From: Isurus oxyrinchus
Taxonomy: Eukaryota
Reading direction: 5' to 3'
DNA length: 64,000 nt
NCBI GenBank assembly: GCA_026770705.1
Contig: JANJGN010000009.1
Coordinates: 35,526,001 to 35,590,000 of the forward strand
Part shown: piece after piece, positions 1 to 40,379 of the stretch
How the letters are laid out: each line of letters begins with the position of its first letter
Position numbering within the stretch: the first letter of the stretch is position 1
Notes under the pieces: generated by a model
What the model saw: the letters and a program-made list of their open reading frames with translations, nothing else
The model's database searches: none
Told to the model about the DNA's origin: nothing
Made by a program: the position numbers and the translations under genes

Positions 1-759
1 GATGTTTACTAGTGTGCCACTGGGATCAGTGCTGGAGCCTCAACTTAATACAATTTATATAAATGACTTTGATGAAGGGACTGAAGGAATTGTTGCTAAA
101 TTTGCTGATGACGCAAAGATTAGTGAAAAAGTCAATTGTGAAGAGGACATAAGAAGGCTACAAAGTGACATAGATAGGTTAGGTGAGTGTCAAAGATCTG
201 GCAAATGGAGTATAGTGTGGGCAAATGTAAAATTGTTCAGTTTGGCAGGAAGACTAAAAAAGAAGCTTATTATCTAACTGGTGAGAAATTGGGGGGCTCT
301 GAGATTCGAGGGATCTGGGTATCCTACTGTATGAATCGCAAGAGGCTAGTATGCAGGTACAGCACATAATTAGGAAAGCTAACAGAATGTTATCATTAAT
401 TGTGAGGGGAGTTGATTACAAAAATAGGAAGGTTATGCTTCAGTTGCACAGGGCTTTGATGAGACTACATCTGGATGTTCTGTACAGTACTGATCTCGTT
501 ATTTAAAGAAAGATGTAACAGCGTTAGAAGCAGTTCTGAGAAGTGTTAGACTAATACCAGGAATGGGTGGGTTGTCTTATGAGTAAAGGCTGGACAGGTT
601 AGGCTTGTATCCACTACAATTTAGTAGAGTAAGAGGTGACTTAATCGAAACCTTTCAGATCGCAGGTATCTTGACAGGGTGGATGTGGAGAGGATGTTTC
701 TTCCTTTGGGAGAATCTAGAACTAGGGGTCACTGTTTAAAAGTAAGGGGTCACCCTTTT
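1..759 (+). mobile_element. CR1-type LINE (family A), RT C-terminal fragment, left part
   Basis: Translates to VPLGSVLEPQL..IYINDFD..KFADDAK..LQSDIDRL, then WQMEYSVGKCKIVQFGRK (CR1 RT motifs) with frameshifts. Breaks at ggggtcaccctttt and resumes at 4751. Confidence 0.9.
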
Positions 760-879
760 ATAAAAATTCATTTACACGATATGGGTTTCGCTGGCTGGGC
801 CAGCATTTATTGCCCATCCCTGGCTGCCCTTGAGAAAGTCGTGGTAAGCTGCCTTCTTCAACTGCTGCAGTCCATGTGT

Positions 880-1220
880 AGATGATGGCGTAGTGGTATT
901 GTCGCTGGACTAGTAATCCAGAGGCTCAGGATAACGCTCTGGGGACCTGGGTTTGAATTTGAATTCAATAAAAGTCTGGAATTAAAAGTCTAATGACGAT
1001 CATGAAACCATTATCGATTGCTGTAAAAACTGATCTGGTTCACTAATGTCCTTTAGGGAAGGAAATCTGCTGTCCTTACCTGGTCTGGCTTACATGTGAC
1101 TCCAGACCCACAGCAATGTGGTTGACCCTTAAAAATGCCATCTGAACAAGGGCAATTAGGGATGGGCAATAATGCTGGCCTAGCTAGTGATGCCCACATC
1201 TCATGAATGAATACAAAAAA
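880..1220 (+). mobile_element. tRNA-derived SINE inserted in the family-B LINE 3' region
   Basis: A-box TGGCGTAGTGG and B-box-like GGGTTTGAAT. Body homologous to copies at 24533 and 34193. Tail agggatgggcaat...cccacatctcatgaatgaat plus A-run. Confidence 0.88.
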
Positions 1221-3492
1221 CACCACAGTACTGTTAGGAAGGGAGTTCCAGGATTTTGAACCAGTGACAGTGAAGGAACACCAATATATTTCCAAGCCAT
1301 GATGGTGAGTAACTTGGAGAGGAACTTCCAGGTGGTGGTGTTCCCGTCTATCTGCTGCCTTTGTCCTTCTAGATGGTAGAGGTTGTGGGTTTGGAAATTG
1401 TTGTCTAAGAAGCCTTGGTGAATTCCTGCAGTGCATCATGTAGATGGTTCACTCTTTTGCTACTGTGCGTCGGTGGTGGGGGAAGTGGATATTTGTGGAT
1501 GTGGTGCTAATCAAGCGGGCTGCATTGCCCTGGATGGTGACAAGCTTCTTGAGTGTTGTGGGAGCTTCATTCATCCACGCAAGTGGGGGGCTAATCCATC
1601 ACACAGCTGACTCGTGCCTTATAGATGGTGGACAGGCTTTGGGGGGGGTCACAAGGTGAGCTAGTCATTGCAAGATTCCTAGCCCCTGACCCGCTTTTGT
1701 AGCCATGGTATTTATACGGCTAGTCCAGTTCAATTTCTGGTCAATGGTAACCCCCAGGATGTTGATAGTGGGGGACGCAGTGATGGTAATGCCATTGAAC
1801 ATCAAGGGATGATGGTTAGATTCTCTCTTGTTAGCGATGGTCATTGCTTGGCAATTGTGTGGTGCGAATGTTACTTGCCATTTGTCATCCCAAGCCTGGA
1901 TATTGTCCAAGTCTTGCTGCATTTGGACATGGGCTGCTTCAGTATCTGAGGAGTAGCAAATGGTGCTGAATTTTGTGCAATCATCAGCGAACATCCCCAC
2001 TTCTGACCACATGATGGAAGGAAAGTTATTGATGAAGCAGCTGAAGGTTGTTGGGCTGAGGACACTACCTTGATGAACTCCTGCAATGTTGTCCAGAGGT
2101 GAGGTGACTGACCAATAACCACAACCATCTTCCTTTGTGATTGGTATGACTCCAACCAGTGGAGAGTTTTCCCCCTGATTTCCATTGATTCTAGTTTTTC
2201 TAGGGCTCTTTGATGCCACACTCAGTCAAATGCGGCCTTGACATCAAAGGCAGTCACTCTCACCTCACCTGGGGAGTTCAGCTCTTTTGTCCATGTTTGA
2301 ACCAAGGCTGTAATGAGGTCAGGAGCTAATGGCGCTGGCGGAACCCAAACAGTGAACACGCTATTGCTAAGCAAGTGTCGCTTGATAGAACTGTTGATGA
2401 CCCCTTCCATTACTTTACTGATGATCAAGAGAAGACTGATGGAGCAGTAATTGGCCGGGTTGGATTTATCCTGCTTTTTGTGCATTGGACGTATGTGGCA
2501 ATTTTCCACATAATCAGGCAGGTGCCAGTGTTATTGCTGTACTGGAACAGCTTAGCTAGGGGTGCGCCAAGTTCCGGAACACAAATCTTCAGTACTACTG
2601 CTGGAATATTGTCAGGGCCCGTAACCTTTGCACTATTCAATGCCTTTAGCCGCTTCTTGATATCATGTGGAGTGAATTGAATTGAAGACTGGCATCTGTG
2701 ATGCTGGGGACCTCTGGAGGAGGCTGAGATGGATCATCCACTCAGCACTTCTGGTTGAAAATTGTAGCAAATACATCAGCCTTATCTTTTGCACTGATGT
2801 GCTGTGCTCCCCATCATTCAGGATGGGGATATTTGTGGAGTTGTTTAATTGTCCACCACCATTCATGACTGGATGTGGCAGGACTGCAGAGCTTAGATCT
2901 GATCTGCTGGTTGTGGGATAACTTAACTCTGTATATCACTTGCTGCTTGTGCTGTTTGGCATGCAAGTAGTCCTGTATTATAGCTTCACCAAGTTGACAT
3001 CTCATTTTTAGGTATGCCTGGTGCTGCTCCTGGCATGCCCTCCTGAACTCTTCATTGAATTAGAGCTGATCCTCTGGCTTCATGGTAATAGTAGAGTTGG
3101 GGATATGCCAGGCCATAAGTTTACAGATTGTGTTCGGGTACAATTCTGCAGCTGCTGATGGCCCACAGCGCCTCATGGATGCCCAGTCTTAAGTTGCTAG
3201 TTGAGTTTGAAATCTATCCCATTTACCATGGTGGTAGTGCTACACAACGCGATGGAGGGTAACCTCAGTGTGAAGGCCGGACTTCTTCTCCGCAATGACT
3301 GTGCGGTAGTCATTCTTACTGATACGGTCATGGACAGATGCATCTGCGGCAGGCAAGTTGGTGAGAATGAGGTCAAGAATGTTTAATCCCTCTTGTTGGT
3401 TCCCTCACCACCTGCTGCAGACTCAATCTAGCAGCTATGTCCTTTAGGACTTGGCCAGTTCGGTCAGTAGTAGTGCTACTGAGCCACTCTTG

Positions 3493-3909
3493 GGCCTGAA
3501 CTTTTAGCTCCGCAGGTGGGCTCGATCGGCGGCCCTGTGACCACCCGGGATGATAAAAATGCTGCCCACATATTATCAATTTTATTTTATTTAACAACGG
3601 AATCCTCTGCCCACCCTTGGATGAGGTTTCATGAAAAATGTAAAGACTGCCTGGCCGATTTGCCCATCCGACAACCTTAAGGTTGGACGGGCGATGAGAA
3701 ATAGAAGACAGTTATGCCATTCATGTACCTAATTGCCCTCTTAATTGTCATCGGATGCGCACAAAAGTTGGAAGTGCACCCACTGACAATATTGTGAAAT
3801 ATCGCGCAAGTGTGCAATGATGTCGGCATGCTCACTCATCGTCATCTCATGTGATTTCATGCCTGATCAGGTAGGGTGCGTGCTCGCCCAACCTATGTAA
3901 ATTCAGCCA
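3493..3909. mobile_element. Harbinger-type MITE (internally deleted member of the ~690-bp family) inserted in the LINE
   Basis: Termini ggcctgaactt / aaattcagcca. TTG duplicated on both sides. Removing it restores gagccactcttggtaatggac. Confidence 0.75.
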
Positions 3910-4750
3910 TTGGTAATGGACATTAAAGTCTCCCACCCAGAGTACATTCTGTGACCCTGCCACCCTCAGTACTTCCTCCAAGTGATGTTCAACATGGAGG
4001 AGCACTGATTCATTAGCTGAGAGAGAGTGGTATGTTGTAATCAGCAGAAGGTTTCCTTGCCCATGTTTGAGCTGGTGCCATGAGACTCCAGAGTTGATGT
4101 TGAGGACTCCCAGGGCAATTCCCTCCCTACTGTATACCACTGTGCTGCCACCTCTGCTGGGTCTGCCCTGCCGATGGGACAGGACCTACCCAGGGATAAT
4201 AATGGCGGTGTCTGGAACGTTATCTGTAAGGAGTATGAAGATAATAGTCATCCATGAGGGTGACTATGTCAGACTGTTGCTGGACTAGTCTACGAGACAG
4301 CTCTCCTGATTTTGGTATTAAACCCCAGGCATTCGTGTGGATGAATTTGCAGGGTCAACAGGGCTGATTGCCATTGTTGTTTCCAGTGCCTAGGTCGATG
4401 TTGAGTGATCCATCCGGTTTCATTCCTTTTTTGTGACTTTGCAGCGGTTTGTTACAACTGAGTGGCTTACTAGGCCATTTCAGGGGCATTTAAGAGTCAA
4501 CCAATTTGCTGTGGGCCTGGAATCATATGTCGGCCAAACCAGGTAAGGACGACAGATTTCCTTCCCTAAAGGACATTAGTGAACCAGATGGGCTTTTACA
4601 ACAATCGACAATGGTTTCATGGTCATCATTAGACTTTTATTCCAGATTTTTAAAAATTATTGAATTCAACCATGGTGGTATCACCCAGGGCATCAACCTG
4701 GGTCTCTGGATTACTAGTCCAGTGACAATTCCACTATGCCATCGCCTCTC

Positions 4751-5005
4751 CAAGACAGAGATGAGAATTTTTTTCTTTCGTGAGCTATGAGTCTTTGGAA
4801 CTCTCTTCCTCAAAAGGCAGTGGAAACAGAGTCTTTGAATATTTTTGAGGCAGAGGTAGATAGATTCTTGATTAACAAGGGGGTGAAAGGTTATCGGGGG
4901 GTAGATAGGAATGTGGGGTTGAGGTTACATTCAGACCAGCCATGATCTTATTGAATGGCAGAGCAGGCTCGAGGGGCTGAGTGGCCAACTCCTGCTCCTA
5001 ATTCA
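4751..5005 (+). mobile_element. CR1-type LINE (family A) 3' end, continuation of 1-759
   Basis: caagacagagatgagaatttttt continues the interrupted sequence. Ends in a CR1-type 3' tail (gaatggcagagcaggctcgaggggctgagtggccaactcctgctcctaattc). Confidence 0.85.
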
Positions 5006-8665: not shown

Positions 8666-8667
8666 AG

Positions 8668-8970
8668 TTTTTTTTTATTCATTGGATGTGGACATTGCTG
8701 GCTAGGCCAGAGTTTATTGCCCATCCCTAATTGCCTTGAGAAGATGGTGGTGAGCTGCCTTTCTGATCTGCTGCAGTCAATGTGGTGTTGGGAAGGTAGT
8801 TCATTCCTTTTTAGACTTTTTAGCAGATTGATACACCTGAGTGGCTTGCTAAGCCATTTCAGAAGGCAGTTAAGAGTCATTGCTGTGGGTCTGGAGTTAC
8901 ATCTCGACCAGATCAGGTAAGGACAGCAGATTTCCTTCCCTAAGGGACATCAGTGAACCAGATTGGGCTT
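8668..8970 (-). mobile_element. Internally deleted derivative of the family-B LINE (SINE-type 5' segment + LINE 3' tail)
   Basis: On the minus strand the SINE body runs into gtatcaatctgctaaaaagtctaaaaaggaatgaa (like the LINE 5' region at ~4420-4455), then jumps to the LINE 3' tail. Confidence 0.75.
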
Positions 8971-9114: not shown

Positions 9115-10426
9115 TTCGAGATGCGTGCCTTGAATTCAATAGTAATAAGACCACCAAGTCTTACAGTTATCTTACAAAACTAAATTAAACCTTTATTAAT
9201 AGAAGAAATGATTTTAATTCTACAAATTACTACCATGATAGCTTATAAATACCCTAGTTAATCTAACTTCCAGTTACACCTTTGTTAAGACAACAATAAA
9301 ACATTTAGATTTTAAAAGACCCAGGCAAAGAAACACGATGCCCTGAACAATCCAGTTCAAAGTGAGTTTCCTTAATTTGTAGCCAGCAGCTTGAGGATTA
9401 GATGCTGGAGGCTTAATCACACTGGTTTTAGATCTTAGAATTCTTTCTCTTACACTACACCTTCTCTCCTTTATACATGTTTTCCCCTTTGAATGCAAAT
9501 TCCCATTGTTTCATTATGTCTTTGGACCTTTACCTCTCTAATAATAAAAAAATCTATCATAGTACCAATTTTACCAGTAATCTTTGGGAAAAAAATAAAC
9601 ATTGGGCACAATTTTGCCCATGGCATGCGGGCTTGGCGGGGATGGGCGGGGGTGGTCGGGAAGCGACCGTCGCCTGCGATTGGGCCTGGAAGGCAATTTC
9701 ACACTGGCGGACCAATTAAGGCCCGCCCAGTGTGAAATGCAAGCGGCAGCGCTCAGTGCTGCCTGTGCAGATGGAGGGAGGAGTGTGAGCCAGGCAAACG
9801 CAATCTTCGTGCGTGCGGGTGAGTGTGTGCTACATAATCTCCCTGAGGCAGAGAGTTGTCTCGGGGAAATGAACTGATTTTGGATAAAAAATCAAAGATC
9901 TTAGAAATTTCATGACTCAGTCACATGAGCAGGGACATGTTTTTAATTCAATTTTTAAATTTTACGTGATTTTTATTTTCCTTTAGGAAACCTCATCCCA
10001 CCCATGGATGAGGCATCCTAAAAAATGTAAAGGCCACTTGCCCACCAACCGTTAGTAAATTTCAATTTAATTAACTTTTTAATGGCCTTAATAAGCCTTT
10101 TAATTGTCAGCGGGCAAGCTGCTGACTACAGCACATGCCTACTGAACAAAATATCGCGTGACTGTGTGATGACATCGGTACACTTGCCCAATGTTATCAC
10201 GCATCATTTTATGCTCGGCCAAGTCCCGCATGCATATACCCGCTGAGTGTAGTTTTCTGTTTACTGTTTCTTAACATCTCCTTGCTAGGTAAAACATTGC
10301 ACCCCTCCTTTGAATTCAAGCTAATCTAGTTTATTTAAAATGCAAATGTTCCTTTTACACCTACGTTTACCGACTTAACATTTCAAACCTAGCTTATCTT
10401 CTGTTACATCAAAGCCTTCAGATCAG
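9115..10426 (-). mobile_element. LTR-like repeat fragment interrupted by a MITE, running into the gap
   Basis: AT-rich with a minus-strand AATAAA (ctttatt). Start loosely resembles 60110-60230. Sequence appears to continue across the MITE. Confidence 0.35.
9604..10262. mobile_element. ~690-bp Harbinger-type MITE
   Basis: Left TIR gggcacaatttt and central hairpin aacctcatcc...ggatgagg. Homologous to the 29664, 43757 and 44744 copies in the opposite orientation. Right TIR decayed. Confidence 0.75.
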
Positions 10427-10590
10427 NNNNNNNNNNNNNNNNNNNNNNNNNNNNNNNNNNNNNNNNNNNNNNNNNNNNNNNNNNNNNNNNNNNNNNNNNN
10501 NNNNNNNNNNNNNNNNNNNNNNNNNNNNNNNNNNNNNNNNNNNNNNNNNNNNNNNNNNNNNNNNNNNNNNNNNNNNNNNNNNNNNNNNNN
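10427..10590. other. Assembly gap (N run)
   Basis: 164 consecutive N. Confidence 1.
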
Positions 10591-11832: not shown

Positions 11833-12289
11833 GAAAGTGCCATGCCTGCAGAACCAGAAGAAAGCAACCTTCACACCTTCCTGTAAACCTGATTTCACAT
11901 GTGAAGCTCATTGTTAAAGCAACCTCCAGCAATACGACAGTCGAAGATATCGCAGCTGCAGAGACAACTCTACAATCTCAAGAACTTCACTTCAGACACA
12001 CATCTCAACTTCAAAACATATCAGGCACTGCACCAAAAATGAACTTAGCTTGATTCATGTTTATAAGTAATGTTTTATCTTCATTTGTAACTATTCTTCT
12101 TGTGTGTACGTGTTAGAACCTTTATCTTTTTTTAAGTCACTTTCAGAGTAATAGTGAAATTCGGAGTGAAATAAAGTAACCTGTTCCCTTGTAAGTAAAA
12201 TGGCTTTGTTGCTGGGTTACTTTTAAATTGAATTACTCACTCCAAGGGTAAAGCATATACATTCACAAACAAAAACATTGTTCTTTTTC

Positions 12290-13705
12290 TTGACCCGCTG
12301 CAGTCCGTGTGGTGTAGGTACACCCATAGTGCTGTTAGGAAGGGAGTTCCAGGATTTTGACCAGGCAACAGTGAAGTAACGGCGATATATTTCCAAGTCA
12401 GGATGACGTGTGACTTGGAATGGAACTTGCAGATGGAGGTGTTCCCATGTGTCTGCTATCCTTGTTTATCTAGGTGGTAGATGTCACAGGTTTAGATGGT
12501 GCTGTCTAAGGAGCCTTGGTGAGGTGCTGCAGTTCATCTTGCAGATGGTACACACTGTTGCCACTGTGCATTGGTGGTGGAGGGAGTGAAAGTTTAAGAT
12601 GGTGGATGGGATGCCAATCAAGAGGGCTGCTTTATCCTGGACGGTGTTGAGTTCTTGAGTGTTGCTGGAGCCGAACTCATCCAGGCAAGTGGACAGCATT
12701 CCATCACACTCCTGACTTGTGCCTTGTAGATGATGGACAAGATTTGGGGAATCAAGAGATGAGCTACTCACCTCAGAATTCCCAGCCTCAGACCTGCTTT
12801 TGTAGCCACAGTATTTATATGGCCGGTCCAGTTCAGTTTCCAGTCAATAGTAACCTCCAGGCTAGTGGCAAATTCCGTGATGGTGATGTAATTGAATGTC
12901 AAGGAGAGATGGTTGGATTTTCTCTTGTTGGAGATGGTCATGGTCTGGCAATTTTGTGGCATGAATGTTACTTGCCAGTTATCAGCCCAAGTCTAAATGT
13001 TGTCCAGGTCATGCTGCAAACGGGAATGGACTTTTTCAGTGTCTGAGTCATCGCAAATGGTGCTGGACATTGTGCAACCATCAGTGAACATTACCACTTC
13101 TGACCTTATGACAGAGGTAATAATAGAGCAATGGAGTAGCTAAAAATGGATGGACCTAGGACAACTTCTGCAGTGATGTCCTAGGATAGAGATGATCGAC
13201 CTCCAACAACCACAACCATCTTCCTTAGTGCTAGGAATGACCCCAACCAGTGGAACTGAGTTTTCCCCCTTATTTCCATTGACTCCAGTTTTGCTTGGGC
13301 TCCTTAATGCCATACTTAGTTAAATGCATCCTTGATGTCAAGAGCAGTCACTATCACCTTACCTCCTGAGTTCAGCTCTTTGATCACCTCTTGAGTTCAG
13401 CTGTTTATTTGGACCAAGGCTTTAATGAGGTCAGGAGCTGAGTGGCCTTGGTGGAACCGAAACTGAGCATCAGTGAGCAGGTTATTGCTGAGTAAGTGCT
13501 GCTTGATGGCAGCTTGCTGATTTTCAAGAGTAGACTAACATGGCGATAATTGGCCAGGTTGGATTTGTCCTGTTTTTTCTGGATAGGACATACTGGCCAA
13601 TTTTCCATATTGCCGGGTAGATGCCAATGTTGCAGTTGTACTGGAACAGCTTGGCTAGGGGCCTGGCTATTTCTAGAGCACAAATCTTCGGTAATATTGC
13701 TGGGA
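12290..13705 (-). mobile_element. Family-B LINE RT fragment
   Basis: KKQDKSNLANY, VTIDWKLNWTGHINTVATKAGLRLGILR. Collinear with 1230-2610. Confidence 0.85.
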
Positions 13706-14271
13706 ATAGTTCACGGGCGACTTTGGGGAAGCATCTTATCAAGTGTCCGTAGCAATATGCTCAAATCCTGTATTGGGACTTATGCCCATTTATTAGAAAC
13801 TCAAGCATGTGCTACCCATGATTTTCAGTCAACCAAAATTAATGGGCCAAAAATTCCTGTTGTGCGCCTCTGGCAGACAAACCTCTGAGCTTGTATGCAA
13901 ATTCATAAAATAACTCTTACTGTCCAAAGTTAAGATAAATTGACCACTTTGAGAAGACCAATTAAAAAAGGCTGTTGATGCTATGAAATTGTTGCCCAGT
14001 GTTGCATTCAGGAGAGGAGGGAAAAAAAGGAGCACAGGGAGAGAGACAATGTAAGAATTTCCAATAATATCTGACAATGATGTCTATTCTACACATACAC
14101 AAGTTGTAATGCAAATATTGAGATATAATGCAAGTGGGTTAAATTTTAATATCAATTGATATGTTGATTCCTTTAATTATATCCTAACTATATTTTAAAA
14201 ATACGGGGAATGATGCTGACAAACCTCCATGAGAAGCAAAATATTTTATGAACTTCAATGTAAAGTAATAC

Positions 14272-14672
14272 CACCTTAAACATTCACTCCCTCCACCACA
14301 GATGCATAGTGGTAGCAATGTGTACCTCTACAAGGCGCACCAAGGCACCTTAGACAGCACCTTCCAAAGCCACAACCTCTACCACTCAAAGGACAAGAGC
14401 AGCAGATGAATGGGAACATCACCACCTGCAAGTTCCCCACCAAGCCACACACCATCCTGACTTAAAACTATATCACCATTCCCTCATTGCCATTGGTTCA
14501 AAATTCTGGAACTCCCTTCCAAACAGCACTGTGGATGTACCTATACCACATGGACTGCAGAGGTTCAAGAAGGCCACTCACCACCAACTTCTCAAGGGCA
14601 ACTAGGGATGGGGAAAAATTGCTGGCCTTGCCAGTGACACTCACGTCTCATGAGCGAATAGATGCAGAAAAA
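14272..14672 (+). mobile_element. Family-B LINE 3' end
   Basis: cattcactccctccaccac...ctggaactcccttccaaacagcactgtgg...caagggcaactagggatggg tail. Confidence 0.85.
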
Positions 14673-15151: not shown

Positions 15152-16426
15152 GGGTGGAATTTTCTGTGCCTGTTGGCATTGGGTGTCATGGCGGGCATGA
15201 GCGGACAATATGGCGGGAAGGCCAAAATCAGTTTCATGACATCACAAAACCAGTTTGCAACCGTCCACTCCGCCTGTCATTGGCGGGCCTCTCCTGCTGC
15301 TGGACGTCGGGAACTTCATTTAAATACATCTGTATATCAGCATAGGCTCGGCTCACCGGAATCATCCCCCTACGCTGGATCATCTGGGCACCACCACACC
15401 GACGTGTTTCGCAACTGATCATAAGTAACATGCATCTGGCGAGCTGCAATTCACTTGGAACTTTGATGCTTGTCTACCCACCTTGCTACGGGCAGCACTC
15501 ACGGTCAGCAGCCCAGGCTTCGCAGGTAGCATGACACCACTTTTAGGGGGGGCTCACGGGCAGGTCTCTACTTATGAGGCCAGACGTAAGGAAGGGGTGG
15601 CTTTTCACGGCTGCAGGACTCGGGCTTGCTTGAGAAGGGGGAGAACTAGCCTCAGACAAGGGAAGAGGCTGCAGGGATAGGGCATTACTGGGGAAGGGAG
15701 GTATCCCAGAGTGTGTGTGGGGGCACATGTTGATCTGTGCAAGTGGCTTCAGGCGGCTGAGGGCTGAGGAAACAGTCTCCAGAGGAGATTAGACCAGATG
15801 AAGATGTGAGGGTGTGTGTGAGAGAGTGAGTGGTGATGTCCCTTGAGCTGGCAGTGAGTGAAATGCCAGTGAATGTCTGATGGGCTTGTGAGTGTGTGAG
15901 TTTACAGTGGCAAGATGGTAACCTTACTCTGGCAGCATGGATGAGATAATTCATCCTCTTTCTGCATTGTATGGCAAACTTCTTCTGTGCATCGTTGGCA
16001 CTGACCACCACTGCCATCGCCTCCCAAGCTGGAGTGGTGATGCAGATGGGTCTCCTGTGACCAGAGTGGGGGTAGAGGATATTGTGGCGGGCTCCAACAG
16101 TGTCCAGAAGGCGTCCAAGGGATGCATCACTGAATCAGGGGGCTGCAGTCTTCTTCCCTTTCGGGGCCATGTCTTCTGTGCAGCAGTCCTGGCCTGGAAG
16201 CGCTGAGAGGTGTGCATGCAGCTGCACTTTAAATATGCCGAGGTGTTGGTGTGGCAGGCGAAACAGAGGTTGCCCGCCAGTGAAATGGCATGTTTCCGCG
16301 AGTGCATGATTACTGACGGGGAATTGGAATGATACGGTATGAAAACCCGCCATTGCCACCAGCGGGTAAAATGTCCTTTATTCCGCCTGCTGCTGTACTT
16401 AGTGCAAATCTGGGACAATTCTGCCC
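15152..16426 (-). mobile_element. 1.27-kb non-autonomous Harbinger element carrying Myb/SANT-like exon 1
   Basis: TIRs gggtggaatt / aattctgccc with perfect ATT TSD (15149-15151, 16427-16429). Empty site reads aagaagacATTaggtcagatgacc. Homologous to 52813-54084. Confidence 0.85.
15928..16170 (-). pseudogene. Myb/SANT-like DNA-binding domain exon (Harbinger ORF), one in-frame stop
   Basis: MAPKGKKTAAP*FSDASLGRLLDTVGARHNILYP...AWEAMAVVVSANDAQKKFAIQCRKRMNYLIHAAR followed by a GTAAGG donor. Confidence 0.75.
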
Positions 16427-19232: not shown

Positions 19233-19301
19233 TCAGATAGCTAAATTTTAGTTAGCCAATCACGATCAGATAGCTAAATTTTAGTTAGCCAATCACGATC
19301 A
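19233..19301. repeat. Perfect 33-bp tandem duplication
   Basis: tcagatagctaaattttagttagccaatcacga x2 plus tca. Confidence 0.95.
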
Positions 19302-19439
19302 AAAAAGTCAGCAAAAAAGGCTTACAGAAATACAAAGAATAGTGTAAATCCTGTAGCCCTGGAGAGCTATTTGAAGCAATAAAGGGATACAAAGAAAGTG
19401 TTAAGTACCAGAAGAAAGGAAGATCAGTCATGGGCAAGT

Positions 19440-22060
19440 TATTATTTGGAATCAGGGGAATAAGCACCAGGGCAAAAATGAAACAATCATAAAGAGTCAG
19501 CATGGCTATGTCATAACTGACTAGCTTAGTTGAATTTTTTGAGGACTTCACTAACATGGTGGATAAAAATGTTGATGGATATTACCTATATGGACTTCCA
19601 GAAGGCATTTGATAAGGTTCTGCACAAGCAATTATTAGCAAAAATAATAATACACAGATTTGAACACAATCTTGGGTTGGAAATTGTTCAGCTAGTAGCA
19701 GAGAGAGAGTAAGGATAAATAATATACTCTGGTGCTTTGTCATAATTGGGCATGAATTTTCACACAGCGAAAATGCCAGCAAAGGCCCTTGACTAGAAGT
19801 CTTGTCCTCGAACCGGGCCTCTGACATTTTCACAAGGTGTGGGAGAATGGCGGTGGGTTATAAATTGCACATCTATGATTCCCGGAGGCAGTTGCACATA
19901 TAAGTCAGCAGCTGCCTCCACACATGATTTTGGTGAGATAGGTGTCTGAAATCCAAAGTGTGCAAATTAGACCTGGGAAGAGCAGGTCTGAACCTTGTGG
20001 GTTCATTTGGGTTGCCAGGGCACCTTTTTGGAGAGGTAAGCTACCCCTTTGGGAGCAGTAAAGACCCCTTGAGGTAGGTCAAGTGCCCTTTGGGATTGTT
20101 AAAAGTTGACATTATTGTATGTAAAAAGTGCATAAACTCATTGGAACTGTCAATGCTGTCAAAGGCCCGTGAAGCTGTGAAAGAACTTTTAAGCTATCAA
20201 AGCGCTGTCAAAGCTGTCAGAGAACTGTAAAAGCTGTAAAAGAACTGTTAAAATGCACTGTAACTGTCGAAGCTCATCGGAACTGTTAAAGCTGTTAAGG
20301 ATTTAACTCTGCTGGGCTTTAATTTTAAAAATGGTGGAATTTTAAAGCGGTCAGTGCCTGCTATTTCACTATGCCTGCTGACTTAAACCTGAGGTTATCA
20401 TTATAGGATTCCTACTAGATGTCTGAATCTACACCTAACATTATCACAGTGAGGTGCATGTTATGTGAATTTGATTGACAGCTCCAAGTGGTCATAGAAT
20501 AGAAATGCTTGTTTTAATAACAGATTAAGTATTTAAATGAAATGCTTGTTTGTAAAAGAAACAAGCTGAAGGAATTTCAATGCATTGATTTTTTTTTAGT
20601 CAATAAGTGTATTTTATTTTACAAAGCGACAACATCAATAGACACATACCTTTATTTTCAGCATGAGGTGTGTCCATGGTGAATACTAGGTCAGGTGGCG
20701 TAGATTTGTAATGGCAAAGGATGGTGACTGGGGAGTGTGGGTTGGCATGTGTTGGCACTAATATCATAGGGGCTATAATGGACCTTGGGAATGACTGGAG
20801 CATGGATTATCATAGGGGGTATGAGGGGCCATGGGGATGGGTAGAGGGGAATAGGGTGGGATTGTGGCATGAGGAGCCATGGGGATGAGTAGAGCAGCAT
20901 AGGGTGGCAGGGAGCCACAGTAGGGGGTGGGTGGGAGCATGAGGTGGCATAGCTTGGCATGGTTGAGAGTGTGTGGGGGGTGATGAAGGGTGAGGGCTGA
21001 TGAACTGTTTTTTTGTTTTAATCATTTTTAAAATAATTTCAGCAAAGTGGCGGAGCAGAGAAGCAGGCCTTCAGAGCAGCCCGCCTCCATGCCTGGCAGC
21101 CTCAGCACTCGCTCCCGGGGAAAGGGGCCTGTCTTCTTATCCAGGCCACACTCTACCTGAAGCCACACACCCTCCCCCTTCCCTGCCCCGAGAATGAAAA
21201 TTTGACCTTCTGAGCCCTTTTCCCAAGTCATTTTGGCAGCACTGGGAAACGTTCCATCTCTGCGCTCCCAACCTGGAAGCAAAATTCTGAGCTTGGTGCC
21301 TCCAGTAATCTGTACCTGGTCCTCAACAGTTCACCATATGTATCAATAACTTGGATATAGGAATAAAGAATGACCAAATCCAAGCTTGCAGATATTACCA
21401 AAATGGGAGGCACAGTTAAGTACTGCAAGTAGATGAAGGAAGAGGTAAATGAATTGACAAAAGAGTGGCAAGTTAACTTCAATGTGCAGAAGTGTGAACC
21501 AGTCCACTTAAATTTCAAGAAAGACAAACCAGTGCATTCTTTAAATAGTGGGAAATAAGGGATAGTGGAGGAGCAAAGAGATTTGGGTGACTATGTACAC
21601 AAATCATTAAAGACCAGTGGAAATGTACTAAAAGCAATTAAAAGGGCTAATGGAATGAAAGCTTTTACCTCAGGGGGATGGGAAAACAAACATACACTTC
21701 AACTGAATCGAGCCTTGGTCAGACCCCATCTAGCATATTGCATTCAGTTGTGGATACCAGACCTCAGGAAGGATATATTGGCCTTGTCATAGGTTACACC
21801 ATAGATTCACCAGAATGATATCAGGCCTTAACCATGAGGATAGGTTGCATTAATTTGGCTTGTATTCCATTGATTTAATTAAGTTATTTCAAATGACAAA
21901 AAGGTTATATCAATAGATAAAGATAATCTTTTTCCTCTGGTGGGGGAGTCCAGAGTAAGATGGCATAACCTTATAATTAGATGCAGGCCACTGAGGCATG
22001 AAGTCAGGAAGCATTTCATCACATAAAAGGGCAGTAAAAATCTAGAACTCATCCCCCTCA
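19440..22060 (+). mobile_element. Diverged CR1 (family A) RT fragment split by a DNA element
   Basis: DITYMDFQKAFDKVLH before the insertion. RDLGDYVHKSLK..KRANGM..LVRPHLAYCIQLW after it. Confidence 0.8.
19748..21292. mobile_element. Harbinger-type non-autonomous element (~1.5 kb) with internal aaagctgtca-like repeats
   Basis: Starts gggcatgaatttt and ends near gcaaaattctgagc. The G-rich ggcatgagggg tract (20680-21000) resembles the right arm of 59323-61159. Confidence 0.55.
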
Positions 22061-22399: not shown

Positions 22400-23370
22400 T
22401 TATAACCTGTATGCATCTACATTGTCCATTCACCTCTGAACTATAAAATTGTGGATCTAATTTTCTCTCAAACCTCTTTTCTCCATTGAAACAACATTTA
22501 GTTCGAAGTCTCTTTTCATAATTCTGAGCCCCAAGCACTGAAAACAGCTTTTTCTCTCCTCTAAGAATCCACTGCAATGCATCAATATAATTTTGAAGGT
22601 AGCATATCCCAAATCTCTCATAATTGTGGCCTAGCCAATGCTTTACATAAGGTTCTGATAATTTGTTCTGACTTACAGTCAAATGCTGTTGAAATCCATC
22701 CTTCAATTTGGTTTGCTTTCTGGACAACAGTTTCACATCAAAATCAAATCCTCTTCTTTTTCAATCTGTGTCAATATACACCTCTCTGTCACGTGAACAT
22801 TTCATATCTCCTGCTCCAATATACATTAGGATGCATTTAAAAATCTATCTGGGATTGTATTGGCCATTCACACAATTGGCTCAGGTTCCTTTAAATTCTA
22901 TTAAACTCTTACACTGATTATCATTAATAAATGTTATATTTTATGATACCCTGCTCCACATCAGCTATAAATAGTATGTAGAGAAATTAGTGCAGAACAG
23001 ACCCTGTGGAACTCCACTTGTCACTTTCCTCAGTCAGAGTTTTTTCCATTTATCATGACCATCTGTTTCCTATTGCCATGTCAGTTTTCAGTCCAGTTCG
23101 CTAATTCTTTAATCTTCTCTATAAGCCCAATGGTGGAACTTTATCAATACCTTCTGAAAACTCAAGTGCTTTATACCCAGAGTATTTACTGTCCACCAAT
23201 TTAGTTACCTCTCTCTACTGAGGATGCCAGCAGATTTGTGAGTCATGAGGAGCTGTTCCCAAATCGATGCTGACTGTCTTCAGGTACACATTGATAGCAA
23301 TCCATAAAATATTCTCGAATATTTTCCCAATTACTGATGTTAGGCTCACTGAATTGGAATCTGACCATAT
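22400..23370 (-). mobile_element. Highly diverged CR1 RT fragment
   Basis: Minus-strand remnants VSLTSVIGKIFE, ggagttccacagggtctg (GVPQG-like) and aaggtattgataaagttccac (FDKVPH-like). Confidence 0.6.
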
Positions 23371-24532
23371 AGTTTCTGCTTCAGCTGTTTTGGAATTCAG
23401 AATTTTCAAAGTCAAACTAGCTCTATTGATGAAGCAATGCTTCCACTGGAATGTGTTTGCATGGCTCAAAACACTCAAGAATTTGCAGCACCCTTTAAAT
23501 GCAGTTTTGTAAACTGCATGCTCCAGCAACCCTGGATGTCCAATTTATAAAGACAGATTGATGACTGAGTACTATACTAGGATAAACTTTGGGGAAGTGA
23601 GTATACATCTGAGTGGTTTTATTGGCATTTTATGTTTGAAGTGAACAACAAACTATCAGAAACAAAAACAAACTATCAAACACTGCTGGTGCAGAATAAA
23701 GCTTGATCAAAACATTGGACGGGGGCACCAAACAGGTGTAAATCTCACATGAAAGGATGGAAATTCATGTCAAGTTTAATTTCAGTAGGTACCATGAGCT
23801 GCCAGAATCTATCACCTCTAGAGGCAGTTTCCCCATTTCAATTTTTTGAATTTCAGCCCCACTTGTCTTGATGTCAGACCCAAGATAAGTCCAAGGGTAG
23901 GGAAATGGGATTGACCTGAGCACCGTTTAATTGGATTGGCAAGAGGGGGTGGAGTGGAAGACTTGCCTTTTTTTGGTGTCATGAGGGCTGCTGAAGAATC
24001 CTGAATGGGGCAGATATCACTTGGGTAAATTTATTTTTGGATATAATCCTTCAAGTTCCATTAGGTCTCTAATGCATATAATTAAGTGTCCTTGGGGGAG
24101 GCTAGGATGCCTGAAAAAAATCTCAGGAATTTAGCTGTGGGACCAACTGGCGCAGATTGGGTGCATGACTATTCAGTTTGCATTGCACCCTTTTATACTT
24201 GAAAACTTTCTACCCCAATGTAGCAATCAAACATTTAAAGGCACACTGCCTTCATAAAAATGTATCAAATTTTGTTGAAGTTTGCCCATACATATATTTG
24301 AGATGCATCTTTGTGTCAATGTTTGTCATTATAGTGAAAATAATGCAGGATTCTTTAATACAGAGACAACAAATCTTAACGTATTTCACTTCAAGAAAAC
24401 TGGTGGACTGCCAAATGAGGAAATGTGCATAGTGCCCAAAATATTCGTCAAAGCACTGTTTTTAAGATGGATCTTAAAAGGAGAGTGGGTTGGAAAGATT
24501 TAGGAAGAGGAATTCTACAGAGTGGGACCTAA

Positions 24533-24888
24533 GGGGAGGTGGTGGCATAGTGGTATTGTTGCTGAACTGGTATTCCAGAAGACCCAGAGTAATGACCTGG
24601 GTTTGAATCCCACCATGGCAGATAGTGGAATTTGAAGTCAATAAAAATCTGGAATTAAAAGTCTAATGATGACCATGAAAACTATTGTTGTAAAAACCCA
24701 TCTGGTTCACTAATGCTCTTTAGGGAAGGAAATCTGCCAGCCTTACCTGATCTGGCCTGCATGTGACTCCAGACCCACAGCAATGTGGTTGACTTTTAAA
24801 TACCCTCTGGGCAAAGGCAATTAGAGATGGGCAATAAATGTTGGCCTAGCCAGCGACACCCACATCCCATGAATGAATTTTAAAAAAA
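24533..24888 (+). mobile_element. Full-length tRNA-derived SINE
   Basis: A-box tggcatagtgg, B-box gggtttgaatccc, conserved body and LINE-B-type tail with A-run. Confidence 0.9.
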
Positions 24889-24889
24889 G

Positions 24890-27637: not shown

Positions 27638-28314
27638 GGGAAGGGCTTTTCGCTTGGCATGCGGGTGTGCACCCGACACACCTTAGCATGACATAGCACG
27701 TGATGACGTTGGGCGAGCTCCCAACATCATCGTGCACTCGTGCGATATTTCGATCGGTAGGCGCACACAAGAGTCTGCAACGCGCCTGCTGACAATTAAG
27801 AGGTCTATTAATGCCATTAATGTGTTAAGTGTGATTTTTTGCTGCCCGTTACGATTGGCAGGTGAGCAAATCAGCCAAACGGCCTTTGGATTTTTGTGGA
27901 AACCTCATCCACAGGTGGGATGAGGTTTCTGATCTTAAAAAACATAAAAACGTTTTGACAGAATTTTTAGAATCTATACGTTCATGTGAGGGAGTCTGGC
28001 ACGTGAACATTTCTTTCCTCATTTCCAAATCTTTATTTCATGGTTTAAAATTCTTCAGCTCCCAGAGGCAGCTCTCTGCTTTTAGGGAGATTTCATTGCG
28101 CGCTCCCCATGCCCACGCAGACTTCAGCGCTTGCCCTCCTCCCGTCTCTGCCCCGGCAGCGCTAAGCCTTTCAGTGCGCATTTCATGATGGTTGGCCATT
28201 ATTTGGCCAGCCAGCGTGAAATGTGGTTGGGGGCTGATTGCGGGTGGCAAGCTGTCTCCTGGCCACTCCTGGGCCCACACACCACGCCTGCCCAACGACT
28301 TCAAAGTCCTGCTC
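27638..28314. mobile_element. ~690-bp Harbinger-type MITE
   Basis: Homologous along its length to 29664-30351, with central gaaacctcatcc..ggatgaggtttc hairpin. TIRs decayed. Confidence 0.8.
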
Positions 28315-29184: not shown

Positions 29185-29469
29185 TTTGTTTTTATTCATT
29201 CATGGGATGTGGGCATCACTGCCCTTCAGAGGGCATTTAAGTGTCCACCACATTGCTGTAGGTCTGGAGTCACATATCCTTCCCTTTAGTAAACCAGATG
29301 GGTTTTACAACAATGATGTCATTATCATTATCAGACTTTAAATTGAAGATATTTACTGAATTCAAATTTCACCATCTGCCATGGTGGGATTCAAACCTGG
29401 GTCCCTGGAACATTACCCTGAGTTGCTGAAATATTAGTCAGTGACAATACCACTATATCACCGCCACCC
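29185..29469 (-). mobile_element. tRNA-derived SINE with internal deletions
   Basis: Reverse complement of the 24533 copy (ttcatgggatgtgggc ... gggattcaaacc ... caataccactat). Confidence 0.8.
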
Positions 29470-29663
29470 TATTTAACCTCATTCTTTGTTACACTCAAGA
29501 AAACCTATCCTATTGGTTCTTTTCTGATCACAGTGCATAGATGGTTGAAACTCACAAAATTGGCAAGCATATCCTTTTCAATCAAAAAAAACCCAGTTGT
29601 GGTCAAACAAGGAGAGGGCAAAGAGGGGAGCCACTCAAACCCTCCTCACCTAGTTGTAACACT

Positions 29664-30351
29664 GGGCAGAATTCTCTGCTTGGCATGCAGGCGCGCACTC
29701 GACATGCTCGAGCATGAAATAGCGCACGATGATGTTGGGTAAATGTCCTGATGTCATCACGCACTCACGCGATATTTCAGTCGGCGTGTGTGCATGATAA
29801 TCGGCAGTGCGCCAGCTAAGAATTAAGAGGCCTATTAAGGCCATCAAAGTATCTATTAATAGGGATTTTTTGTTGCTCGTCCAACCATACGGTTGGAGGT
29901 TGGTCAAATTGGCCAGGCGGCCTTTGCATTTTTCAGGAAACCACATCCAAGGATGGGATGAGGTTTCCGTAATTAAATTTAAAAAATCTACATGCAAAAT
30001 TTTTATAGCGTCCATGTATAGGTGACTCATTCTGATGTGTGGATATTTTTTTCGGATTTTAAATTCTGGCTTTATTGATTTTAAATTCATCAGCTCCCTA
30101 AGGCAGCTCTCTGCCTTTAGTGAGCTTTCCTTCCACACTCTCCCACACCTGCGCTGAGTTCAGTGCTTGACCTTCTCCTGCCTCCACCCAGGCAGTACTG
30201 AGCCTTTCAGCGCATCTTTCATGCTGGCTGGCTGTTAATTGGCCAGCCATTGTGAAATCTTAGTCGTGGGCTGATCGCAGGTGGTGGCCCGTATCCCAGC
30301 TGCTCCCGGACCCGCCGATTGCGGCCGCCCGCCGACCCGAACATTCTACCC
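29664..30351. mobile_element. ~690-bp Harbinger-type MITE
   Basis: TIRs gggcagaatt / cattctaccc with perfect ACT TSD (29661-63, 30352-54). Confidence 0.88.
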
Positions 30352-32694
30352 ACTGTCTACTTATACACAAAGCTATGTCAGGATCCTGATGGTCTAGTGG
30401 CAAATGCATTACAACCGAGCTATACCAAGAATAGCTCTAGGTTTGATTGCTTGTTATCTGTTGGTTTATGAGATCATAATACATGAAAAAAGCCATTCAA
30501 CCCATTTATCTATCTAACCACTCTAGTATTGAACTGTTCCTGAAATAATTCCAGGTTTTTGTCTCACAGTAGCTGGAAGTTTATTCCACATGTTAATTAC
30601 TCTGTGTGCAGAAGAATTCACTGATATCAGTCCTAACATCTCTAACTATTATCAAGCTGTGTACCTGATTGCCATTTTGATAATTTAACTTAAAAATAAT
30701 TAGATGAAATTTTGTGTTGAGTGGTAGTCAACCTTAATGCCCCATGGGGTTAAATAACACTAGCCAGGGTTTCCATTTCTGATCTGTATTTAACTCTTTG
30801 AAGCCCACTTTGGTCAAATTCTCTGCTCATCTTCACCACTTAAGCCTTCCAATAAAGCATGACCATTTGGATATGTGAAATCAATGCTATGTATTCCAGT
30901 GTGACTGATAGTCTTCAGGAGAGGTGTCAGGAGGTCGAGGTGAATTTGTTCATTCTAATGACTGACCTTCTATACTTTTTTTGCAGCATTTTCTGTTCTA
31001 CAAAAGTATCAGTCTATGTGGTGCTTTATTGGGATGAGCAGTACTTTCACTTTCAGTTCATGGTTCTGTCAAAGGCGATGAGCCTTTTTATTGGAGTTAA
31101 GGCTCCTCTGCTGTGTTATTTGCTGGACACAATGGACTGATTGATGACTGATTTATACAGTATAGGGTGTTTGGGAGGAGAAAATATCATTTTTGCTGCC
31201 GCGTTAAGGGCAACACTGTGTAAATGTTAATATTTTTATTATTTTTGAAAATCCCTACAAAAGTCTTTCAGGCGTTGTCAAATGACTGTAAACAGCCCTA
31301 GACATTTCTTTCATTTACTACCAGGAAATTAATGCAGATCTATTAAAAATGCACTCACACTGTACTTTAATACCACCGCCTGGACTGATCATTATGTTTG
31401 AGCTGTTGTGCAACTGAGTGATTTCAGTGGAATCTGCTTCTCTGAGCACTTTTCCAGTCATCTAATGTTATTAAGACCAACCTTTACTTGGTCCAAATGC
31501 TGACAGTCATTAATGCTGCAATTTGTCATTGAAAATTAGATATGTGTTTATTTTTTGCTGTTACACCCCCCAGTTGTAAGTTGAAGTGGCTCTTAATCAC
31601 TCTGGTGTTAAGCATCATCACTGGTACATTCCACTATGCAAACTTCAAGGTGGCATTAATGCATCACATGCACATTTATCGTTGAAAGAAACTATTACCA
31701 GAAAAATTAAATCCTCCCAGAAGCTAACACCAATTTTAAAACCTAGGCCTTAACTAACAACTGTCCAAAGCTGAGTAATTGCATCCAGTAAAATCTCAAA
31801 TGTTGTTTACATCCAAGTACAATATGTGTGATGGTATAGGTGAAGAAGCATTACTCATGCTCTATGGATAACCAGCCAATCAGTTCTCAAGGGCGTTGTA
31901 ACATTGAAAAGCTCATTGCTAAGTAGTTGCAAATGAATTTTGTAATCATCCACAGGAAAGACCACAGTGGTTGCACAAAATGACCATAAAAGGAATGCAT
32001 CATCAATAGAGTTCAAAAGTTGGGAATTTGATGAATCTCAGGATTATGTGCAGAGGAGAAAGGAGGTGCTGCCTATTGCACTTAAAACTTGTAGTGGTAC
32101 ATGAAAGCTTAAGGCAATGAGTGTTTAAAATTGTTGTTAGTGGTTAATGCAAGTTGGTGTGGAGTAAACAAAACTTAAGAAGTAAAAGTAGATATAAATT
32201 ATCTAGAATAAGGTACAATAGATCAGATTCTTTGTCTGGACTGCAGTATGGGGGAGTTTGTGAACAGTGAGTCTGCCCCTCATGAACACACCTGCTGTAG
32301 ATCTCTCTGTCTCAAATCCCTCCGTTTCAGAGCCATTGGGCTGAAGTGCAATTTGGAGACATTCAGACACAAAAGGTAGGTGGAAAAGTCTCTGGACAGT
32401 TGGCACACGACTTTGGTGACACCCTATAGAGAGATGCAGGATCAGAAAATGGTTGAAGGAATGATAGTGTAAAAAGAACCTAGGTGAGATGGGGAGTAAG
32501 GATCAACAAAAACTGATTCTATCAATAGTTACAAAGTGTTTATTACCTGTAAGGATAAATATAAAGACTAGAAGGGCAGCTGTGGCACCTTCAGGTAGAA
32601 AGCTGTCCAAAGGGGCAAGGAGGAGGATGAGATGTGTAATGTAACAGTTGTAGGTGATTCAATATTAAGGGGACAAATAATATGCTTTATAAGC

Positions 32695-32860
32695 AAAATC
32701 CTGGAACTCCCTTCCTAACAGCACTGTGGGTGTACCTACATCACATGGACTGCAGCAGTTCAAGAAGGCAGCTCACCACCACCTTCTCAAGGGCAACTAG
32801 GGATAGGAAATGTTTGCCCAGCCTGCGAAGCCCACATCTCGTGAATGAATAAAAAAAAAA
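32695..32860 (+). mobile_element. Family-B LINE 3' tail
   Basis: caaaatcctggaactcccttcctaacagcactgtggg...cccacatctcgtgaatgaat plus A-run. Confidence 0.85.
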
Positions 32861-34192: not shown

Positions 34193-34597
34193 GGGGGAGA
34201 TGATGGCATTGTGTTACTGTCACTGGACTAGAAATCCAGAGGCCCAGGTTAACGCTCTGGGGACATGGGTTCAAGCCCCACCATGGCAGCTGGTGGAACT
34301 TAAATTCAATTAATAAATTTGGAATGTAAAGCTAGTCTTAGTAGTGGGCACCATCACAACTATCAATGATTGTTGTAAAAACCCAACTGATTCACAGATG
34401 TCCTTTAGGGAAGGAAATCTGCTATGTTTACCTGGCCTGGCCTTGATGTGACTTCAGATCCACAGCAATGTGGTTGATTCTTAACTGCCCTCTGAAAAAG
34501 GCTAACAAGCCACTCAGTTCAAGAGTAATTAGGGATGGGAAACAATTGCTGGCCTTGTCAGCGATGCCCACATCCATGAAATAATAAATTTTTAAAA
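34193..34597 (+). mobile_element. Full-length tRNA-derived SINE
   Basis: Decayed A box and B box gggttcaagccc. Junction aagccactcagtt|caagagtaattagggatggg. Confidence 0.9.
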
Positions 34598-34675
34598 ATA
34601 TTGGGGGAGGGCTCAGGTGCAAAAGGTAACATAAATAACAATTCCAAAATAATCAAAAGTGAAGACAGTAGAGCA

Positions 34676-35340
34676 ACTATCAACATCCTGGGAGTTACCA
34701 TTGGCCAGATACCCAACTAGCCAGCCATATAAATGCTGTGGCTAAAAGAGCAGAGGCTGGGAATTGTGCAGTGAGTAGTTCAGCTCCTGACTCCCCAAAG
34801 CCTATCCACCATCTACAAGGTACAAGTCAGGAGTGTGATGGAATACTCTCCACTTGCCTGGATGAGTGCAGCTCCAACAACACTCAAGAAGCTTGACACT
34901 ATTCAGGACAAAGCTTTATTGGTGCCACTTCCATCGCCTTAAGCTTTCACTCCTTCCAGCATCACTACATACCTGCAGCAGTGTGCACCAATTACAACAT
35001 GCACTGCAGCAACTCACCAAGGCTCCTTTGACAGCACATTCCAAACCCACGGCCACTACCACCTGGAAGGACAAGGACAGCAGATGCATGGGAACACCAT
35101 TACCTGCAAATTTCCCTCCAAGTCATACACCATCTTGACCTGGAACTATATTGCCATTCTTGCACTGTTGCGGGGTCAAAATCCTGGGACCCCTTCCCTA
35201 ACAGCACTGTGGGTGTAGCTACACCACATGCAGCAGCTCAAGAAGATGGCTCACCACCACCTCCTCTAGGGTATTTAGGAATGGGCAACAAATTCTGTCC
35301 TAGCCAGTGACACAAGCATTTTGAAAAAGAATGAAAAAAA
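34676..35340 (+). mobile_element. Family-B LINE 3' fragment
   Basis: actatcaacatcctgggagttaccatt (INILGVTI), IYKVQVRSVMEYSPLAWMSAAP, then the 3' tail. Confidence 0.85.
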
Positions 35341-35399
35341 GGCAAAAATATACATTAGACACTGCAAGTAACAAAAAAACTAAAAGATGTAAAGCAATT

Positions 35400-35745
35400 T
35401 TTAAAAATTTGTATATGGGATGTGGGCATCACTGGCCAGGCCAGCATTTCTTACCCATCCCTAGTTACCCTAGTTCAGAGGGAATTTCAGAGTCAACCAC
35501 ATTGCTGTGGGTCTGGAGTCATATGTGGCCAGGCCAGATAAGGACACCAGATTTCCTTCCCTAAAGGGCATTAGTGAATCACGTGGGTTTTTAAAACAAT
35601 CAACAATGGTTTCATGGTCATCGTTAGACTACTAATTCCAGATTTTTATTGAATCTAAATTCCACCATCTGCAGTGTCCCAGGTCCCCAGACATTACCCT
35701 GGGTCTGTTGGATTACTAGCCAGCAACTATGCCATCGCCTCCCCC
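35400..35745 (-). mobile_element. tRNA-derived SINE
   Basis: Reverse complement of the SINE body. Ends actatgccatcgcctcccc. Confidence 0.85.
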
Positions 35746-40290: not shown

Positions 40291-40379
40291 AGGCGAGAAG
40301 ATGGCAAAGAGCTTGCTCCTTGAAATGCTGCAGTACACCCACAGTGTTGTTAAGAAGGGAGTTCCAGGATTTTGACCCA

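Follow-up and report, generated by a model that had tools for sequence, protein, structure and literature searches.

A Zenon LINE of Elasmobranchs with a tRNA-Like SINE Head: A Probable Chimeric Retrotransposon and Source of SINEs

The subject of this work is a decayed long interspersed nuclear element (LINE) found at 760–4751 of a 64,000-nucleotide stretch of the Isurus oxyrinchus genome (contig JANJGN010000009.1, positions 35,526,001 to 35,590,000; this whole stretch is referred to below as the window), which, judging by its sequence, is a member of the elasmobranch Zenon family from the CR1 group. The LINE starts with the transfer RNA (tRNA)-like head and the body of the short interspersed nuclear elements (SINEs) of the same window. 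The same 5′ part opens the published consensuses of the family, head and LINE were inserted here as one unit, and the window SINEs are composed of LINE 5′ and LINE 3′ sequence. Elasmobranch Zenon is probably a chimeric autonomous retrotransposon equipped with a promoter-bearing SINE head and yielding SINEs. The complete element would consist of the tRNA-derived head and SINE body serving as the 5′ untranslated region (UTR), a short linker, one coding region for endonuclease (EN) and reverse transcriptase (RT), a short 3′ UTR, and an A-rich tail. The features concerned are as follows (strand in parentheses):

760–4751 (−): elasmobranch Zenon LINE, full-length, decayed, with a SINE-type 5′ end; 3,233 bp without its two nested inserts
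4670–4751 (−): tRNA-like head with an A-box at 4741–4731, an anticodon-type hairpin, and a long extra arm; B-box core deleted
4479–4669 (−): AT-rich spacer and conserved SINE body
4456–4478 (−): body end, i.e., ATG at 4478–4476, in-frame TAG as codon 3, then AAGCCACTCAG
4337–4455 (−): LINE-specific linker, K/R-rich (basic) in the EN frame, not found in the free SINEs
3260–4336 (−): apurinic-type endonuclease region, broken and interrupted
3489–3906 (strand not assigned): nested later insert of another repeat family, ~418 bp, inside the EN region
1743–2560 (−): reverse transcriptase region, frameshifted
880–1222 (+): nested free SINE of the short-spacer type, antisense within the LINE 3′ end
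760–832 (−): 3′ tail common to the SINEs, with the last codons, the stop at 822–820, a short 3′ UTR, and an A-rich end
1–759 (+): left flank of the insertion site, one half of a remnant of the canonical CR1 that hosts the LINE
4752–5000 (+): right flank of the insertion site, the other half of this CR1 remnant
8667–8970 (−): second junction copy, in which a 5′-truncated body and ~37 nt of the LINE linker are joined to the LINE's final ~125 nt; deletion type 3
34193–34599 (+): free SINE of the long-spacer type, breakpoint 4456; deletion type 1
24533–24889 (+): free SINE of the short-spacer type, breakpoint near 4479; deletion type 2
35397–35745 (−): free SINE of the short-spacer type; deletion type 2
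29190–29470 (−): free SINE with extra deletions in body and tail

The initial annotation of this DNA held that the LINE opens with the head and body of the free SINEs, and the self-comparison of the window bears this out: positions 4751–4456 (−) align over ~295 bp with four free SINEs at 72–82% identity (34194–34519, 71.9%, expectation value (E) 3e-39; 24533–24805, 78.6%, E 8e-59; 35474–35748, 78.3%; 884–1133, 82.1%). The A-box assigned to the LINE head was located, intact, at 4741–4731 (TGGCATAGTGG). The motifs of both boxes typical of the tRNA-derived (SINE2) class are present in the free copies, and the B-box is kept in the SINEs at 24600, 29384, and 34268, the last with two mismatches. The tRNA model of Rfam matched the LINE head with 21.4 bits (E 0.069) and the SINE at 24536–24620 with 16.7 bits across the whole model; the heads of the copies at 29.4k and 34.2k gave no match to it. 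ARAGORN reported no tRNA at default settings; at 85% of its threshold four of six heads were detected, and that of the LINE only at 75%. The support for a tRNA fold in these decayed copies is, overall, real but weak. The SINE body is presumably the V domain.

Downstream of the body, EN-like coding starts at 4336, ~120 bp past 4456 and 415 nt from the 5′ end, ~295 of these nucleotides being shared with the SINEs. Such proximity of the EN start to the SINE-shared part leaves no room for a first open reading frame (ORF1), whose absence had been proposed along with a compact length of ~3.2 kb, in agreement with the 3,233 bp found here. In the EN region, the scores of Pfam PF14529/PF03372 are below the cut-off, a GDFN motif occurs at 3933, and tblastn returns matches to the external proteins P0001 and P0008; the linker, 119 nt long, is matched by P0003, P0005, P0007, P0009, P0011, P0012, and P0014. 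The RT is recognized by RVT_1 above the Pfam cut-off (E 1.2e-8 on 1668–2225) and by RVT_1 clusters of ESM Atlas (score 0.94). Both domains are present, in order, in a copy broken by stops and frameshifts. The tail shared with the SINEs starts three codons ahead of the ORF stop. It is T/A-mixed in the copy at 760–4751, and the Zenon tails at 32850, 58158, 50255, and 8667 have A-rich ends. No ribozyme family was matched in 4300–4900.

Other Zenon sequences of the window include a copy at 50255–51915 (−) with a block order different from that of 760–4751 and ~100 bp present twice (51055–51157 and 51517–51619). Further fragments (12287–13708, 14270–14660, 32694–32860, 34676–35313, 40333–40379, and 57962–58168) are 5′-truncated or internal, and the EN region is reached by none of the six. 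The 418-bp repeat nested in the EN region, whose ends bear an imperfect short duplication, has six relatives (9971–10032, 27686–27949, 29875–29986, 37988–38080, 43968–44061, and 44956–45048).

The unity of head and LINE was addressed by checking whether other 5′-complete copies carry the same head, as the initial annotation advised, and by the structure of the insertion site. When the flanks are joined at 759|4752, the resulting sequence aligns to another CR1 copy, gapless at the junction (E 1e-11) and with the frame open across it; the flanks are, accordingly, halves of one older CR1, and therefore the head and the LINE came in together. The site reads TTTT|AA, without duplication, and inspection by eye revealed no clear target-site duplication at six insertions. 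A second junction is found in the copy at 8667–8970, where 8800–8970 match 4419–4595 (81.6%, E 7e-41), extending ~37 nt beyond the SINE boundary into the LINE-only linker. Exact matches of the junction 16-mer occur at 4453 and 8832; with up to two mismatches allowed, there were four matches vs. 0.14 expected by chance. The structure at 8667–8970, occurring as a single copy, may represent a one-off deletion rather than a family.

At the family level, the first 400 nt of the 10 Zenon rows in Supplementary Table 2 of Stuart et al. 2026 (PMC13343379) were explored by motif text search and by-eye comparison. Head, body, and junction stand at the start of all seven elasmobranch Zenon consensuses, representing five species, one of them a ray; the head is missing from the first 400 nt of the remaining three rows (hagfish, coelacanth), and the body motif occurs in seven rows of the supplement, elasmobranch Zenon only. 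Exact B-box 10-mers are present in six of the seven consensuses (three with GGTTCGAATC, three with AGTTCAAATC), and that of the ray displays a 2-nt loss. By eye, the consensuses CarCar, ScyCan, RhiTyp, HypSab, and SquAca share the head, body, and linker with the window LINE, as well as the length of ~3.3 kb, the lack of ORF1, and the A-rich tail; the ATG-GCC-TAG at the body end is seen in 6/7 consensuses with all five species represented. According to PMC13343379, the -1 family consensuses of the five species are 3,244–3,314 nt long, Zenon has no ORF1 and ends with a poly-A tail, and the elasmobranch Zenons, more than 84% identical to each other, cluster with elements of crustaceans and have yet to enter the repeat repositories. 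The family is abundant: for one of its consensuses, 2,313 copies were assessed (PMC13343379). As a separate observation, the hagfish EptBur_Zenon-2 from the same supplement contains two short stretches that, by eye, faintly resemble parts of the SINE body but stand in the reverse order, probably by chance.

All SINEs of the window consist of LINE 5′ plus LINE 3′ sequence, with no sizeable part foreign to the LINE. The SINE 34193 fuses AAGCCACTCAGTT directly to the LINE tail, exactly as the initial annotation described, but the limit of the shared body that it placed at 4456 holds for this SINE only, since the other four head-bearing SINEs (24533, 35745, 880, and 29470) diverge ~22 nt earlier, near 4479. 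Three breakpoints are recognized: 4456 (34193), near 4479 (24533, 35745, and 880, and similarly, though with additional loss, 29470), and 4419 (8667–8970). The two SINE breakpoints coincide with the two edges of the body-end segment 4456–4478, that near 4479 falling just ahead of the body-end ATG. Among the near-complete SINEs, 34193 is the least LINE-like, with 74.0% identity to the LINE vs. 78.5–82.2% for 24533, 35745, and 880 (73.5% for the partly deleted 29470), and its spacer is 8 nt longer. By eye, this long spacer resembles that of the Squalus consensuses, and the short spacer of the LINE and three SINEs resembles that of Carcharodon and Scyliorhinus. Such a combination of breakpoints and spacer types is the pattern expected of repeated deletion from contemporary LINE subfamilies; judged on it, the window SINEs probably arose repeatedly through internal deletion of the Zenon LINE. 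A single deletion would yield a complete SINE, because the LINE already carries both the promoter and the tail. In terms of classification, the window SINEs are built only of LINE 5′ and 3′ ends, as SIDE elements are, but possess a small-RNA head, and the definition of SIDE given for Persaeus admits neither such a head nor an RNA polymerase III (Pol III) promoter; like SINE2 elements, they share the 3′ tail with the partner LINE. An isolated tail-only copy of ~75 bp at 37593–37666 (−) starts where the SINE tails start.

It is somewhat more probable than the opposite that Pol III, directed by the A and B boxes inside the head, transcribes the LINE RNA over its full ~3.3 kb. In vertebrates, a run of at least four T residues is a Pol III terminator; therefore, if the whole element were read by Pol III, such runs (T4+) should be selected against in the sense strand. 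This expectation was tested on 7,626 nt comprising nine overlapping and, hence, non-independent stretches against a base-shuffle null, with 3,619 nt of canonical CR1 from the window (five of the six listed CR1 fragments) as the control. The pooled stretches contained three sense T4+ runs vs. 15.1 expected (ratio 0.20, p 0.0025), and the control contained 13 vs. 14.3; under base shuffling, the LINE at 760–4751 alone had 2 vs. 6.5 (p 0.037). The SINE copies had 2 vs. 6.1 expected (p 0.058). The pooled ratio of observed to expected was 1.15 for TT and 0.58 for TTT, and A4+ was normal. With a first-order Markov null, the pooled depletion persisted (3 vs. 11.0, p 0.005). One T run compared at homologous sites turned out to be copy-specific. 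The depletion supports but does not prove Pol III transcription, because the copies overlap, C4+ runs are somewhat low as well, and the control is not a head-less Zenon.

If such RNA exists, it would serve as the template for reverse transcription and possibly also as messenger RNA, in which case translation would dispense with both a cap and a plain AUG start. By eye, TAG is the third codon counted from the body-end ATG in the consensuses of all five species; beyond it, the frame of this ATG is stop-free through the basic linker in three species, visibly into EN in the ray, and one base short in the other two. An ATG in the linker at 4423 was considered as a start, being in frame with EN in the window copy (87 nt), but was rejected: in the ray consensus the distance is, by eye, 89 nt, so that there the conserved ATG of the linker and EN are in different frames. 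A candidate −1 slippery site in the linker was dropped as not conserved. Read-through, re-initiation, and non-AUG initiation may be the options for translation of the uncapped RNA, and the R2 element offers an analogue. For the full picture, i.e., an autonomous RT-encoding LINE common to sharks and rays, which would be transcribed by Pol III end to end from a captured tRNA-SINE promoter, purged of terminators in its coding part, translated without cap or AUG, and turned into a SINE by one deletion, the chances appear about even.

A number of observations weigh against this interpretation. The window contains just one 5′-complete copy, and this copy has lost, according to the alignment, ~11 nt with the B-box core; the initial annotation had already noted B-box damage here. 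The Rfam tRNA model matches 2/4 heads scanned singly, under the gathering score, and the folds of body and head are no better than those of shuffled sequences (z −0.9 to 1.1), with two-sided change in just 1/26 pairs of the body consensus fold. The absence of the head in coelacanth is a weak argument, because the start of that consensus is of low confidence. Under the Markov null, the LINE alone is not significantly depleted in T4+ (2 vs. 4.8, p 0.14); in the other copies, C4+ runs show some shortage as well (0.60, p 0.02), and the control represents a single family, CR1. No AUG opens the EN frame cleanly. Pol III products are normally uncapped. They are also normally short (PMC10886601). External proteins gave a mixed picture. 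Of 19 proteins, the N-terminus was testable in 13 (significance by 300 shuffles); in P0004 and P0010 it was placed significantly within the SINE body, just upstream of EN (p = 0.003, the shuffle floor), a count of 2/13 that is biased upward because the search profile included the junction sequence. The other 11/13 were non-significant, mostly starting in the linker, downstream of the junction, and the N-termini of P0015, P0017, and P0019 are unrelated. P0005 and P0007 start, by eye, at the body-end ATG, but with p of 0.20 and 0.17 they were not counted as support.

As to the origin of the head, it was likely captured once from an older V-SINE, before the split of sharks and rays, either by a template switch or by a 5′-truncated Zenon insertion behind a SINE front end. 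The two options of the initial annotation, a deletion derivative of the LINE or a head captured by it, both fit when placed in order: on the sequence evidence, the history fits a capture first, followed by repeated deletion giving the present SINEs. In the literature, V domains are traced as far as the divergence of Radiata from Bilateria and pair with the tails of L2, CR1, Nimb, and Zenon. The greater age of V domains, the seemingly younger elasmobranch Zenon, and the head-less state of other Zenons together make capture likelier than a V domain native to this LINE. The latter, distinctly improbable view, following the hypothesis of Kojima, would derive the V-SINEs across animals from a V domain, alone or together with the tRNA head, native to the 5′ UTR of Zenon/CR1. 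It is favored by the fact that the 5′ UTR of the elasmobranch Zenon LINE holds a conserved SINE body, a situation reported in PMC5786205 as not found for conserved bodies, and by bivalve V-SINEs, which likewise pair with CR1-Zenon. Nevertheless, the V domain is missing in 400 nt of the hagfish and coelacanth Zenon rows, the 5′-derived element of lepidopteran Zenon is described in PMC6740152 without tRNA or a Pol III motif, the tRNA head must be acquired by the LINE at some stage in any case, and the DNA transposon MER6 likewise captured a V-SINE (PMC6887750).

Transcription by RNA polymerase II (Pol II) of a LINE with the head fixed on it is possible, though rather less probable than Pol III transcription: either the head or the body would provide the Pol II promoter, or an RNase P-like 5′ cut would release the tRNA fold from host read-through RNA, Pol III being left for the SINEs only. 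A translatable RNA is obtained more easily in this way, LINEs are described as Pol II-transcribed in PMC10886601, and other ORF1-less LINE clades set their 5′ ends via ribozyme RNA processing (PMC5786205); still, neither the depletion of sense T4+ runs nor the retention of the B-box in 6/7 LINE consensuses is predicted by this scheme. An old SINE lineage that does not derive from the LINE 5′ end is unlikely; here the LINE would have captured the head, and the likeness would be kept by repeated template switching or gene conversion, not by new SINEs arising through deletion. V-SINEs are known to swap tails, and the window copies are too few for a tree, but the capture must then hit the boundary of SINE body and tail exactly, and the three breakpoints together with the LINE-only linker in the 8667–8970 copy speak against it. 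A chance neighborhood of a SINE and a 5′-truncated LINE at 760–4751 can practically be dismissed. A pair of this kind does exist in the window, where the SINE 34193–34599 ends 77 bp before the truncated Zenon at 34676 on the same strand; that chance adjacency retains the SINE tail and spacer, whereas 760–4751 has neither, and the single insertion site, the second junction, and 7/7 consensuses refute this explanation.

The compact ORF1-less structure is already known, because PMC13343379 describes it for Zenon, as are the deletion derivatives of lepidopteran Zenon (PMC6740152) and the consensus sequences, labelled only LINE/Zenon; the SINE-headed architecture is in print as sequence but appears to be unremarked there. 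PMC13343379 makes no mention of a tRNA head, SINE body, promoter, or partner SINE for its Zenons; the words "tRNA", "promoter", and "polymerase" do not occur in its main text or in the bioRxiv version, nor does "tRNA" in the searchable supplement text. No LINE with a tRNA-SINE head was met in the titles and abstracts searched, subscription journals, Repbase, and Dfam being outside their scope.

Several known systems resemble the one under discussion. The window SINE is presumably HE1, and the LINE presumably HER1. PMC3747384 lists HE1 as a V-SINE of sharks and rays with the partner LINE HER1, a tRNA-derived shark SINE sharing the 3′ tail with a LINE like the window pair; the two are listed as tail-sharing, whereas in the window the whole SINE front end equals the LINE 5′ end, too. 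In Lepidoptera, the Persaeus SIDE/Zenon arose by repeated internal deletions of a ~3.3 kb Zenon, keeping the 5′ UTR, the ORF end, and the 3′ UTR; as described in PMC6740152, it lacks tRNA homology and a Pol III promoter, in contrast to the tRNA-headed shark product. Bipartite SINEs of RTE/Vingi, e.g., Bov-tA, combine 5′ and 3′ LINE parts as here, but their tRNA head was added after the deletion and not on the LINE, whereas here it sits on an autonomous CR1-group LINE (PMC5786205). Kojima reported SINE bodies with LINE 5′ parts only from RTE and Vingi and reported no LINE source for the conserved bodies (PMC5786205), so that either capture or native origin would be new information. MER6 (PMC6887750) and the terminal-repeat retrotransposons in miniature (TRIMs) Cassandra, Helenus, and Ajax (PMC10886601) are described as having acquired either a V-SINE or the Pol III promoter of a small RNA; they are, however, short and non-autonomous, with no RT, and MER6 lost the head, whereas Zenon encodes RT.

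The elasmobranch Zenon blurs the usual division, in which LINEs are Pol II-transcribed and small-RNA heads belong to SINEs alone, and suggests that a SINE could be born in a single step. Because the conserved body sits in the 5′ UTR of a LINE, a retrotransposition assay can test where the SINE body comes from and what it does. If the interpretation is true, Pol III elongation over long distances and translation independent of a cap could naturally be studied on this coding transcript of 3.3 kb. On the practical side, full-length shark Zenons will have their 5′ ends mislabelled in repeat libraries as separate SINEs.

Auxiliary searches yielded little: a search of longer proteins with the junction peptide gave 0/40 candidates, a GTDB scan for stray host contigs gave 0/20 stretches confirmed by protein, and one GTDB 20-mer match (L001), with nothing matching beyond the pattern, was taken as chance. 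Apart from the Zenon-related sequences, the window harbors decayed canonical CR1 at 1–759 plus 4752–5000, 38438–40300, 19300–19700, 22700–23400, 41386–41562, and 59138–59311, an assembly gap of 164 N at 10427–10590, a cluster of short inverted repeats at 55434–55881, and a 1.1-kb repeat in two opposite-strand copies (15152–16237 and 53003–54084), which are 75% identical.

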